A stretch of 64,000 nucleotides of DNA, taken from contig OZ024758.1 in assembly GCA_964016885.1 (NCBI GenBank), positions 39,866,001-39,930,000 of the forward strand, in the 5' to 3' direction. The position numbers and the translations under genes were made by a program. Positions 27,001 to 54,641 of this stretch are shown one piece after another; the stretch's first letter is position 1, and every line of letters begins with the position of its first letter. The stretch is from Eledone cirrhosa. Its lineage: Eukaryota. The notes below the pieces were generated by a model. The model was not told the DNA's origin. It was given only the letters and a program-made list of their open reading frames with translations, and ran no database searches.

Positions 27001-27431
27001 AAAACCTCTACGTAGTCTTTCTAACTGCTAGAAATAGCAGCGATATTATCCATTACAACTTCGTTTTTTTGTTTAAAATATCCAAAGTTTAGTTATAAAA
27101 TCAACAGCAAGTCCTTTGCACAGACTTCGGAATAAACATGAAGACCGTCAAAATATCATTCTCCTTCTCTCTCTCTTTAAACAAAGAATAGCTGCTTTCA
27201 ACCTTAACGGGATCTTCTGAAACTCATTATTTTAATCAATAGTTGCTCTACGGCTTATATATACATATATATATATATATATATATATATATATATATAT
27301 ATATATATATATATATATATATATATATATATATGAAGTAATTCCGTCGGAAAATTCCAGGAAAAAAGAGTGCTCTATGTAGGCAACAGAGCTTAATTAT
27401 TATTATGTAATAAACAACATAAGGCAATTAT

Positions 27432-27489
27432 TCCATTTACCAGTGGTTTCTTAAAAGCAAAAGGTTTTGCTTTCAATCCTCAGAATGAA
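27432..27489 (-). ncRNA. Type I hammerhead ribozyme (intact)
   Basis: Exact reverse complement of 29351-29408. Confidence 0.82.
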
Positions 27490-28100
27490 AAAATCCTGGT
27501 TTGTTTATTGAATTTGGATTTAAAAAAACAAAAATGCAAACTATATGAAAGTGAGGCTGAAGAAGGGAGAAGGAAAGGAAAAATAAAATAAAACTACACA
27601 TGCAAACACACACACAAAAACACAAAAGCATACATACACACACATACATATATATATATATATATATATATATATATATATATACACATACACATATATA
27701 TTAAAAAGAAACATTGACACTCCTATGATAAATCAACCGCCTTGAACTCCTTTCCTGCTCTTTACTTCTGCTACGGTTTTTATTTTGCTGATTCTACGTT
27801 CTGTACTCTTGTATATTTACTTATTTTTTTCTCCCTTACCTCCCCTTATATTTTACCTTTTCTTATGCCCCCCCCCCCAATATATTCTTTTTGCCTTGCC
27901 CTTCACATACCTATGTGTATGTGTATCTATATTTGTGTGTATATATATATATATGTGTATATATGTATGTATATATATATATATATATATATATATATAT
28001 ATATATATATATATATGTATATGTGTGTGTATGTGTATGTGTGTATATATATGTATATATTTGTGTGTGTGTATGTATATGTGGATAAACCAGGGTTTTT

Positions 28101-28158
28101 TTCATTCTCAAGATTGAAGGAAAAATTTTTTGCTTTTAAGAAACCACTGGTGAATGGA
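28101..28158 (+). ncRNA. Degenerate hammerhead (CTCAAGA core, GTG triplet)
   Basis: Aligns to 29351-29408 with core and cleavage-site substitutions. Confidence 0.7.
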
Positions 28159-29350
28159 ATAATTGCCTTATGTTGCTTTATTACTTTACTACTATATATA
28201 CGTATATGTAAGGTTCATATGAATTATCTAAGACTGAGTTTTACACATACACACATGTATGTGTGTGTGTATGTGTATGCATGTGTATATATATGTATGT
28301 ATATGTATGTATGTATATATATATATATATATGTGTATATATATATATGTATATATATATATGTGTGTATATGTATGCGTGTGTATGTATATATGTATGT
28401 GTGTCTGTGTTTGTGTTTGTATTTGGTTGTGCGTGTTTATGATATGTACGTATTTGTATGTGTATAATTGTTTAGCTATGTATGTATATGTGTGTGTATG
28501 TATACGTATGTGTGTGCGTGTGCGTTTATATTTATGTATATATATGTATATATATATATATATATATGTGTGTGTGTATATAATTACATATACATATGTG
28601 TGTGTATATATTGTATACGTGTGCGTATTTGTGCATGTATGTGCATGTATGTGTTTATGTATTTGTATATGTATATTTATGTGTGAGAGTGTGTGTATGT
28701 GTTTACGATTTCGTACGTATGTATACGTGCATTTGTGTGTATTACTTACCACGCGTGTCTGTCCAGTTAGCTGCCTTATGTAACGGTGTCAAAAAATTTT
28801 TTTAATATATATATATATTTTTTCTTATATTTATTTGCGTGTGTGAATATGTAGAGGAGTGCATTTATGTATGTGTATGTATGTACGTATGTATATATGT
28901 ATGATTGTGTGAATGTATGTATGTATATATGTGTGTGTGTATGGCTATGTTTGTGTATGTGTATGCTTGTACACACATATATATATGTATGTGTATATGT
29001 GTATATATATATATATATATATATATATATATATATATATATATATATATATGTGTGTGTGTATATGTGTGTGTGTATGTGTATGTATGCGTGTATGTAT
29101 GTGTATATGTGTATGTATGTGTATGTGTATATTTGTGTATGTATATATATATATGTGTATATGTATATATGTATATATATATATATATATGTGTGTGTGT
29201 GTATGTATGCTTTTGTGTTTTTTTGTGTGTGTGTTTGCATGTGTAGTTTTATTTTATTTTTCCTTTCCTTCTTCCTTCTCCAGCCTCACTTTCATATAGA
29301 TTGCATTTTTGTTTTTTAAAATCCAAATTCAATAAACAAACCAGGATTTT

Positions 29351-29408
29351 TTCATTCTGAGGATTGAAAGCAAAACCTTTTGCTTTTAAGAAACCACTGG
29401 TAAATGGA
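29351..29408 (+). ncRNA. Type I hammerhead ribozyme (intact)
   Basis: Stem I ttcatt/aatgga; CTGAGGA; stem II ttgaaagcaaaa-cc-ttttgcttttaa; GAAAC-cactg-GTA (GUA triplet at 29400-29402). Confidence 0.85.
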
Positions 29409-50871: not shown

Positions 50872-51056
50872 CAATCACAGACATCACTTGACCTAAACAA
50901 CTTTCACGTGTGTTGCCTTTTCTTTTTCTCTTTCACTGCAACATATGCAGAGAAGAATCTAAGTCCTTGGCATGGCTACAAAGCCATGTTCGTGCCACCC
51001 ATGTATGGGGTAAAGGTCAAGGGATGGCAAGTCTTGAACCCAAGATGCACCCATTC
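50872..51056 (+). mobile_element. RTE ORF C-terminal C2H2 finger remnant + 3' end
   Basis: [23 protein letters not shown], followed by atggcaagtcttgaacccaagatgcacccat, homologous to the 3' stem-loops at 56720-56752 and 57362-57396. Confidence 0.6.
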
Positions 51057-52971
51057 TATGTATGTATATATTTATGCATGTATGTATATACGTATGTATG
51101 TATGTATGCATGTATGTATACATATATATGTATGCTATTATGTGTATATATATTTATATATATATATATATATATATATATATATATATATATATATGTA
51201 TATATATATATATATATATACGTATGTATGTATGTATATATGTATATGTATATACGTATGTACATATGTAAGCATCAGATACATATATATATATATATAT
51301 ATATGTGTGTGTGTGTGTGTGTGTGTGTGTGTGTAAGTATGTGCGTATGTGTATGTGTGTAAGTATGTGCGTATGTGTATGTGAGTATATATATATATAT
51401 ATATATATATATACATGTGTGTGAGGTGTGTGTGTGTGTGTGTAAGTATGTGCGTATGTGTATGTGTGTAAGTATGTGCGTATGTGTATGTGAGTATATA
51501 TATATATATTATATATATATATACATGTGTGTGAGGTGTGTGTGTGTGTGTGTGTGCGTGCGTGTGTGTGTGTGTGTGCGTGTGTGTGTATGTGTGTGTG
51601 TAAGTATGTGCGTATGTGTATGTGTGTAAGTATGTGCGTATGTGTATGTGAGTATATATATATATATATATATATATATATATATATACATGTGTGTGTG
51701 TGTGCGTGCGTGTCCCAAAAAGTGATGTCATCTTGTGGATTGCTATCGTCAGCTCTATCCAGAAGTGACCAGTAACCACTGACTGGCCACCGAGTGACCA
51801 TTATAATTGTTCTCTCTACCCCGCCCCTCCACCAATGTACTCAACAGAACTATTAACGTTACACGTCAGTGGCGGCCTTGAGACGTCCTGGTCAAGGAAT
51901 TTCGGACAGTACTAACCTCTCACCCTCTACACCGCTCAAAGGTATAACTATCAATATGTGCGTATATATAGGTGTATATAATTATATGTATATACATATA
52001 TGGAGTTTATATATATATATATATATATATATATATATATATATATATATATATATATATATATATATATATATATGTATATATATATATATATATATAT
52101 ATATATATATATATGTATATATATATATATATATATATATATATATATATATATATATATATATATATATATATATATATATATATATAATTATATGTAT
52201 ATATATATATATATATATATATATATATATATATATATATATATAATTATATGTATATATATGTATATATATATATATATGTATATATATATATATATGT
52301 ATATATATATATATATATATATATATATAATTATATGTATATGTATATATATATATATATATATAAATGAAGTAATTCCATCGGAAAAGTCCAGGAAAAA
52401 AGAGTGCTCTATGTAAGCAACATAGCTTAATTATTATTATTATGTAATAAACAACATAAGGCTTAATTTAAGCTTAATTAAAGCTTAATTAAAGCTTAAT
52501 TATTATTATTATGTAATAAACAACATAAGACTTTTGCTACGGCTTTTATTTTGCTGCTTCTACCTTCTGTACTCTTGTATTTAAAAAAAAAAATTTTTCT
52601 CCCTTACCTCCCCTTATATTTTTACCTCCTCTTAGCCCCCCCCCCCCATGTATTCTTTTTGTTTTGCCCTTCACATACCTATGTGTATGTGTATGTATTT
52701 TTGTGTGTATATATGTATATGTGTACGTATATGTTTGTGTATGTATATATATGTGTATGTATGTATGTATATGTATGTGTGTGTATATATGTGTATGTAT
52801 ATGTGTCTGTATATATATATATATATATATATATATATATATATATATATGTATATATATATATATATATATATATATATATATGTGTGTGTGTGCGTGT
52901 CTGTATGTGTGTATATATTTGTATATTTGTGTGTGTATATGTATGTATATGTGGATAAACCAGGGCTTTTT

Positions 52972-53029
52972 TTCATTCTGTAGATTGAAGGAAACTTTTT
53001 TTGCTTTTAAGAAACCTCTGGTGAATGGA
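52972..53029 (+). ncRNA. Degenerate hammerhead (CTGTAGA core, GTG triplet)
   Basis: Counterpart of 28101-28158. Confidence 0.68.
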
Positions 53030-54479
53030 TTAATTGCCTTGTATGGCTTTATTACTTTACTACTATATATACGTTTATGTAAGGTTCATTTGTCTTATCT
53101 AATACTGAGCTTTACACATACACACATGTATATGTGTGTGTGTATGTGTATGCATGTGTGTATGTGTACGTGTATGTGTGTATATATATATATATATTTA
53201 TATATATGTATGTGTATATATATATATATGTATGTGTATAAATGTATATGTGTATATGTATGTGTATGTATGTATATGTTGCGTGTGTTTTTATTTATTT
53301 TTATGCATGTGTGGGTTTGTGTGTGGGTGTGTGTGTGTGTATATATGTGTGTGTGTTTGTATTTGGTTGTGCGTTCTTTTGATATATACGTATTTGCATG
53401 TGTATAATTGTTTAGCTATGTATGTATATGTGTGTTTACGTATTTATATGTGTGTGTGCGTTTATATTTTTATATTTTTGTATGTATATATATATATATA
53501 TATATATATATATATGTATATGTGTGTGTGTGTGTATATAATTACATATACATATGTGTGTGTTTATATTGTATACGTGTACGTGTTTGCGTATGTATGT
53601 GTATGTACGTGTTTATGTATTTGTATATGTATATTTATGTGTGAGAGTGTGTGTATGTGTTTACTATTTCGAACGTATGTATATATGCTTATGTGTGTAT
53701 TACTTACCACGCGTGTCTGTCCTGTTAGCTGGGGCATGTATCGCTGTCAAATATTTGTTAATATTATTTATATATTTTTTTCTTATATTTATTTGCGTGT
53801 GTTAATATGTAGTGGAGTGCATTCATGTATGTGTATGTATGTACGTTGTATGTTTGTGTGAATGTATGTATATGTGTGTGTATATATATGTGTGTGTGTA
53901 TGTGTAGGCTTGTACACACACATGTGTGTGTGTGTGTATGTATATGTGTATATGTGTGTATATGTATGTATGTATATATATGTATATATATATATGTATA
54001 TATGTATGGATATATATATATGTATATATGTATGGATATGTACATGTGTATATATATGTGTGTGTGTATGTGTGTGTGTGTGTGTATATGTGTGTGTGTG
54101 TGTGTGTGTGTGTGTGTGTGTGTGTGTATGTATGAATATATGTATGTGTATATGTGTGTATATATGTGTATGTGTGTGTAGGTGTACGCTCTTTATATAT
54201 ATATGTATATATATATACATATGTATATATATGTATGTATATATATATATATATATATATATATTATATATGTGTGTATGTGTATATGTGTATGCGTGCA
54301 AATTATATGTGTATATATGTGTGTGTGTGTAAGTATGCTTTTGTGTTTTTTTGTGTGTGTTTGCATGTGTAGTTTTATTTTATTTTATTTTTCCTTTCCT
54401 TCTCCCTTTTCCAGCCTCACTTTCATATAGATTACATTTTTGTTTTTAGAATCCATATTCAATAAACAAACCAGGATTT

Positions 54480-54537
54480 TTCATTCTGAGGATTGAAAGC
54501 AAAACCTTTTGCTTTTAAGAAACCACTGGTAAATGGA
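54480..54537 (+). ncRNA. Type I hammerhead ribozyme (intact)
   Basis: Identical to 29351-29408. Confidence 0.85.
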
Positions 54538-54641
54538 ATAATTGCCTTATGTTGTTTATTACATAATAATAATATATATATATATATATATATATATATA
54601 TATATATATGAAAAGTGTAATTTTCTACACAAAACGAAGGT

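Follow-up and report, generated by a model that had tools for sequence, protein, structure and literature searches.

Penelope-like elements (PLEs) of the Hydra clade are the closest described relatives of two repeat copies, located at 27333-29442 and 52367-54573, in the 64,000-nt stretch of the Eledone cirrhosa genome analysed here (contig OZ024758.1, hereafter the window). Hydra-clade elements and the present family have in common one open reading frame (ORF) that codes for a reverse transcriptase (RT) and a GIY-YIG endonuclease, (TA)n targets, an inverted 5' arm and a tail, together with a type I hammerhead that has a palindromic helix III and a helix II without a G-C closing pair (PMC8557442). 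RWK/DKT, CxCX5C, CxxC and CxH motifs, the absence of CCHH and the (TA)n targets characterize the clade (PMC8557442), and the inverted arm and the tail are standard PLE features (PMC8557442, PMC11167929). The nearest listed Hydra PLE, Hydra-1_Obim, is similar by eye in the N-terminus and in RT4-5, and its helix III palindrome has the same design (PMC8557442). The present family differs from the clade in length: a microsatellite-rich 3' untranslated region (UTR) of 1.9 kb brings it to 4.3 kb, whereas less than 3 kb is usual in the clade, a short length being typical rather than strict (PMC8557442). It also carries an extra, internal hammerhead with a GUG site, whereas no Hydra row in the available part of File S2 has a second same-strand motif or a G at the site. 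The function of hammerheads in PLEs with an endonuclease has been described as unclear (PMC8557442).

Three more distant systems share individual traits. PAc Poseidon of Anolis also shows AT-rich targets, partial tandems and, downstream of its hammerhead site, two 3' end sites (a short end and a tail); however, it belongs to another clade and its hammerhead overlaps the ATG, whereas that of the present family, known from sequence, lies ~227 nt upstream of the ATG (PMC11167929). In Pen1_Av of Adineta vaga, a long spacer with fast turnover (0.9-1.5 kb) likewise lies between the ORF and the 3' terminal repeat, but that spacer consists of unique captured host DNA, whereas the present one is a U-rich microsatellite mosaic holding the element's own target and a copy of its own 3' end (PMC3846280). 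In metazoan non-LTR (long terminal repeat) retrozymes, the type I hammerheads show a relationship to the terminal repeats of PLEs; in contrast to the autonomous and dispersed present family, these retrozymes are ORF-less tandem units of 170-400 nt, each with a cleavable motif (PMC7229834, preprint 10.64898/2026.07.22.740005). In a literature search of partial coverage, no PLE was found to have been described with a second hammerhead that is internal and non-cleavable. The present family is a new family of a known clade, distinguished by its 1.9-kb U-rich mosaic UTR and the internal motif, and the window copies are ordinary truncated PLE copies with an unusual, testable hammerhead history. The joint reading developed below, that they are truncated copies of a Hydra-clade PLE 3' UTR whose upstream hammerhead is a likely self-inserted 3' end that later turned into GUG, probably under selection, is given a probability of about 85%.

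The autonomous element behind the window copies

The first-pass annotation described the two copies as an almost non-coding family, preferably a retrozyme-like non-autonomous element and alternatively the 3' end of a PLE family. A search with the terminal region gave 1,149 first-look candidates in the 3.0-Gb genome. Among the 10-kb stretches around 20 matches, several contain a PLE ORF that ends exactly where the forward part of copy 1 starts. Open frames of 713-718 codons are present in 20 of 150 scored matches, and 18 of the 20 long-frame loci fetched have an ORF of 709-714 aa. The locus L051 holds a whole element, with a hammerhead, the tail, a leader, a 710-aa ORF (P0001), the UTR with the internal motif and the mosaic, and the terminal motif in this order, and measures 4,309 nt between the terminal sites. 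The internal GUG motif is followed by the terminal GUA motif in 17/18 full-ORF loci, and a hammerhead and leader precede the ORF in 12/18; the tail ends in (TA)n. Long copies thus carry an intact RT and GIY-YIG ORF, which bears out the PLE alternative and contradicts the retrozyme-like one.

The RT and GIY-YIG motifs of P0001 were read directly. Its single ORF with a C-terminal endonuclease follows the layout of endonuclease-bearing PLEs, as do the partial tandem pseudo-LTRs, the inverted 5'-truncated arm and the optional tail of the element. RWK, DKT, CxCX5C, CxxC and CxH are present and CCHH is absent. The placement in the Hydra clade rests on these protein motifs compared with the published description of the clade; it agrees with the palindromic helix III hammerhead near the 3' end and with the (TA)n at the window flanks and copy ends, except for the right end of copy 1, after which no (TA)n follows. 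A search with P0001 gave 1,347 homologues at E<=1e-20, and a Pfam scan matched 0 families for P0001 and for the second window ORF.

Both window copies show the same order of (TA)n, inverted piece, pyrimidine stretch, upstream GTG motif, TA/TG mosaic and terminal motif. This order and the hammerhead-type motifs were correctly recognized at first, but the description as an almost non-coding family does not stand, since copy 1 starts with the last ten codons of the ORF and copy 2 corresponds to the UTR of the full-ORF copy L146. Copy 1 has a (TA)n tract of the Hydra-clade target type (PMC8557442) on its left (27256-27334), followed by the inverted PLE tail (27333-27397, minus strand), an extension beyond the shorter 3' end that reaches leader sequence and matches the leader upstream of the ATG in L051. 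The inverted 5'-truncated 3' end of the element (27398-27700, minus strand) includes a terminal hammerhead (27432-27489). The forward part begins with the ten codons and the stop (27713-27745, plus strand), whose C-terminus is as in P0001 and the 18 full-ORF copies, and continues through the pyrimidine-rich UTR start with a poly-C run (27746-27910, plus strand), the internal hammerhead and the (TA)/(TG) mosaic (28200-29250, plus strand), which aligns to the UTRs of L051 and L146, to the element end near 29442. Copy 2 has a (TA)n tract on its left (51963-52365). Its inverted arm of 96 nt (52367-52462, minus strand) consists of the tail and ~30 nt of the 3' end without a hammerhead, with a short duplicated junction to 52529. 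The body of copy 2 (52530-54573, plus strand, with (AT)n next) is 3' UTR sequence of the type found in the youngest subfamily and matches that of L146 at 97.1% identity over 2,086 nt. The bodies of the two copies are 81-87% alike, and their internal and terminal motifs are 1.25 and 1.5 kb apart.

The microsatellite body follows the ORF stop in 100/100 ORF-anchored copies. The body is thus the ~1.9-kb 3' UTR of the element, and the tail with inverted end is the usual Penelope 5' inversion. Judged from these alignments, the window copies are 5'-truncated copies of an autonomous Hydra-clade PLE and not a non-coding retrozyme. A non-autonomous element with a microsatellite body, mobilized in trans, is very improbable. 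Most window-like matches have no ORF, and 10 of the first 20 long stretches share the exact 5' junction of copy 1, as such an element would require; however, these 10 also share flanks of 8 kb and are segmental duplicates rather than transpositions. The association of the body with the ORF stop further opposes a separate element, as does the absence of the short tandem units, each with a cleavable hammerhead, and of the non-coding character that define non-LTR retrozymes (units of 170-400 nt in PMC7229834). The motifs are more than a kilobase apart and the upstream one has GUG, so that no small circle is predicted.

The segmental duplication spans ~8 kb around copy 1 and explains the 10 early matches. 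The window block 21300-29900, containing copy 1, fragments of long interspersed elements (LINEs) and minisatellites, is duplicated at 10 other examined loci on C16, C20, C23 and C27 with ~90-98% identity, and some of these duplicates carry later LINE insertions inside the PLE UTR.

The element 3' UTR has 48% U on the sense strand. The 3' UTRs of three Hydra-type families (L051:3560-5455, L200:4987-7070 and window 9065-13200) can barely be aligned but have a common strand bias, with 46-48% T and 7-13% C on the sense strand. The composition of Hydra-type UTRs seems to be kept while the sequence turns over.

Terminal and internal hammerheads

The terminal motif fits the sequence pattern of a type I hammerhead (CUGANGA...GAAA core, NUH site and three helices), with the core CTGAGGA, a helix II of 12 pairs, a palindromic helix III and a GUA site. 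It occupies 29351-29408 in copy 1 (plus strand, GUA site at 29402) and 54480-54537 in copy 2 (plus strand, GUA site at 54531). The cores start at 29357 and 54486 on the plus strand and at 27483 on the minus strand, with predicted cuts after 29402, 54531 and 27438, respectively. A scan of the window for the hammerhead pattern gave four matches, the three already named at first and an unrelated AT-rich one. The three intact motifs are identical from helix I to helix I, as had been reported. However, the minus-strand motif at 27432 is not an independent witness of conservation because it lies in the inverted arm of the same insertion as the motif at 29351. Between the present family (family A) and its sister (family B, about 75-90% protein identity), all catalytic letters of the terminal motif are fixed, and one two-sided and two one-sided pair changes keep the pairing. 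When the motifs were folded freely together with their flanks, the signal was weak or absent (z -2.1 to +0.1).

The internal hammerhead lies at 28101-28158 in copy 1 (plus strand, A1 type, GUG site at 28152) and at 52972-53029 in copy 2 (plus strand, GUG site at 53023). The first-pass annotation had noted the GTG common to both and regarded the motifs as dead by different core hits. The first part of this claim is confirmed, but the core is intact across the family. The CTCAAGA core of copy 1 (28107) is private to the window copy, its duplicates having CTGAAGA, and the CTGTAGA core of copy 2 (52978) is common to 13 other matches, a sub-branch of 14 with identical ORF ends against 450 pattern matches with the intact CTGAAGA. 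Among 30 loci picked by their downstream flank, all 25 readable ones have an intact core. The endpoint of one young deletion coincides with the border of helix I.

A pattern including the downstream flank gave 409 matches with G at the internal site and 0 with any other base, although it misses a GUA branch and the oldest intact internal copies; a universal GUG at the internal motif was rejected on account of both. Selection of copies by the ORF instead gave an internal motif in 93 of 100, with G at the site in 87, which therefore lack an NUH site, and A in 6; the motif was lost by deletion or insertion in the other 7. GUG is a documented non-cleaving hammerhead site (PMC4191386), and computed folds of the GUG motif pair G17 with C3. 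The internal GUG motif is thus predicted not to cut, and it is the shared GUG change, rather than copy-specific core hits, that marks the putatively silenced motif.

Age series and history of the internal hammerhead

The natural alleles include every state, namely no motif, an intact duplicate, GUG, GUG with a broken core and GUA with a broken helix I. Locus comparisons have shown the age order to be the empty allele, the intact duplicate, the A17G change and a reversion to GUA beside a second lesion. The same lineage has an older subfamily with the empty allele, seen in the two arms of L412 and at L357/L424; in the latter, a copy of the element's own ends was nested later in the (TA)n. Family B has a 2-kb mosaic UTR with one motif only in the three full UTRs read. 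The oldest internal allele has GUA in 14/15 loci, and its motif ends at the short 3' end of the element and is followed by (TA)n. An intact motif ending in this way is the mark of a 5'-truncated self-insertion; thus the internal hammerhead is likely a self-insertion of the element 3' end into the element's own (TA)n. Twelve of the oldest-allele loci read on into the UTR. Two others, representing one duplicated event, end at the internal motif with the whole ORF span upstream, and no UTR marker was found in the next 25 kb downstream of them. Short elements with the tail joined to the internal motif, an expected sign of circles, were found in 0/15. Across 30 old-type loci, the site is G in 25, A in 4 and C in one.

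The young branch has GUA again in 75/75 matches, but the closing pair of helix I is broken in 26 of its 27 readable loci and the helix III palindrome is lost. A mismatch in the closing pair of helix I slows hammerhead cleavage. A tree of 640 nt of the ORF retained 40 of 50 rows, 10 long-branch rows, mostly truncated ORF segments, being dropped. The copies with an intact internal motif are basal with the longest tips; the GUG copies branch off in a ladder-like manner, and nested among them is the GUA branch (100/99). A position of the GUA branch outside the GUG copies was rejected (approximately unbiased test, p 1.6e-38), and an independent silencing of the intact motif in this branch is ruled out by the nesting. 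A second origin of GUG is suggested by L395.

Two side observations concern this series. L403 and L404 (C1, 426.6 and 426.8 Mb) carry a 2.6-kb element that ends at an intact internal hammerhead and has the size of published Hydra elements. The early changes of the duplicate are A-to-G (site 17 and helix II; L362-L406), and several changes of the GUA branch are T-to-C (L272-L301); scars of RNA editing are a possible source of these changes.

Drawing on the PLE literature, the element protein would nick (TA)n and reverse transcription would start inside the RNA at two 3' end sites, often stopping early and leaving an inverted arm such as those of the window copies. As the element carries its own (TA)n target in the UTR, insertion of its own 3' end there would have produced the internal hammerhead. 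If the internal motif could cut, or act as a 3' end, the element would lose part of its RNA, and disabling the duplicate, whether by A17G or by the break in helix I, would have let lineages out-copy the others. The A17G form carried all later amplification. Selection rather than drift is narrowly favoured for this disabling. The earlier suggestion of selection for only one active ribozyme is plausible. The genome-wide series speaks for it more strongly than the window does, although the core hits given as its reason do not hold.

Several results weigh against the joint reading or parts of it. An Rfam search of 29300-29460 (161 nt), the check proposed at first, returned no hammerhead family among 10 matches at E up to 10, and for the whole window only simple-repeat miRNA matches appear among the matches listed (150 of 233); thus the terminal motif rests on pattern, pairing and comparison with the published Hydra-clade hammerheads. 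In family B, the terminal motif has one broken helix II pair, and the excess conservation of this motif within family A is not significant (3/57 vs. 16/123 sites, p 0.09). The single C among the old-type sites and the one GUA-branch locus that retains the helix I closing pair are exceptions in the series. At L396 the internal motif lies on the other side of a UTR segment, so that the insertion history given here is provisional in its details. Internal priming or a later deletion would suffice to explain the one event that stops at the internal motif. The 12 older loci retrotransposed with two intact motifs; thus internal cutting was not obligatory. Hammerhead mutants of PAc inserted normally in vitro, and no RNA ends were reported at its site (PMC11167929). 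Since master copies succeed one another in a ladder as the family evolves, one A17G change could hitchhike, and the counts are not independent events.

These last points favour a history with the same element and the same duplication in which the internal hammerhead is neutral baggage, the A17G change, possibly a scar of A-to-I editing, rode a master lineage, and the reversion arose by chance or by conversion from the terminal motif. This history is possible, at odds well short of even. It accords with the few masters, the 12 read-through loci, a total ORF divergence of only a few percent across the series, the two early A-to-G changes of the duplicate and the dispensability of PAc hammerheads in vitro (PMC11167929). 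However, no large lineage has a fully intact internal motif, with 14-15 intact loci against at least 409 GUG matches and 75 matches with a broken helix I. Moreover, the site returned to A only in the branch with the second lesion, and L395 suggests a second GUG origin.

The intact core raises another explanation, in which the GUG motif is a one-way helper: via the palindromic helix III, its intact core would join the terminal motif in a double hammerhead and cut the terminal GUA while itself staying uncut. If so, a Penelope RNA would cut its own 3' end without a tandem copy and leave the UTR uncut. PLE hammerheads are thought to need dimers (PMC4209133), and a duplex between its helix III and that of the terminal motif could form (-8.2 and -7.0 kcal/mol). 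The core is intact in the 450 matches and the 25 unbiased loci given above, the young deletion halts at the helix I edge and, with the GUA branch excluded, the core and helix I/III sites are less variable than the flanks (1/27 vs. 66/332 shared variants, one-sided p 0.023). However, the shared-to-singleton test is not significant (p 0.24), families B and D are widespread without an internal motif and two young branches expanded in which either the core (14 matches) or helix I (75 matches) is broken. One position of the helix III palindrome is lost in the youngest subfamily, and tandem copies already provide two terminal motifs. A helper function is therefore improbable, and a self-inserted, later disabled 3' end is preferred. 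Since the element that holds this series is still amplifying and has intact ORFs, cutting, the need for dimers and the cost can be tested on real sequences. Self-insertion of a (TA)n-targeting element with its own target in the UTR is also a possible route by which microsatellite mosaics spread.

Other elements in the window

A second Hydra-type PLE lies at 5492-13420, with a truncated RT and GIY-YIG frame of 523 aa (7493-9064, plus strand), a microsatellite-rich 3' UTR of 4.1 kb and a 5' arm that is long and inverted. Helix II of its hammerhead candidate measures 116 nt (inverted copy at 5843-5687, minus strand), and the minimum-energy fold is a three-way hammerhead of -46.9 kcal/mol. As modelled, a hammerhead with such a helix II would be missed by the usual descriptors. 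The 3' half of the candidate has 6,816 exact matches. The 5' half was found in 9 of 30 loci, all with an intact core and a helix II of 115-126 nt, and was not shown in the other 21.

Minus-strand frames at 573-2066, 3412-4815 and 20722-22349 are taken, by their motifs, to be putative fragments of non-LTR (LINE-type) endonuclease and RT frames. Between the two copies of the present family, a 20-kb satellite of 5-nt units with periods of 20, 25 and 45 extends over 29897-49881 and is followed by a 47-nt tandem array at 49881-50870.

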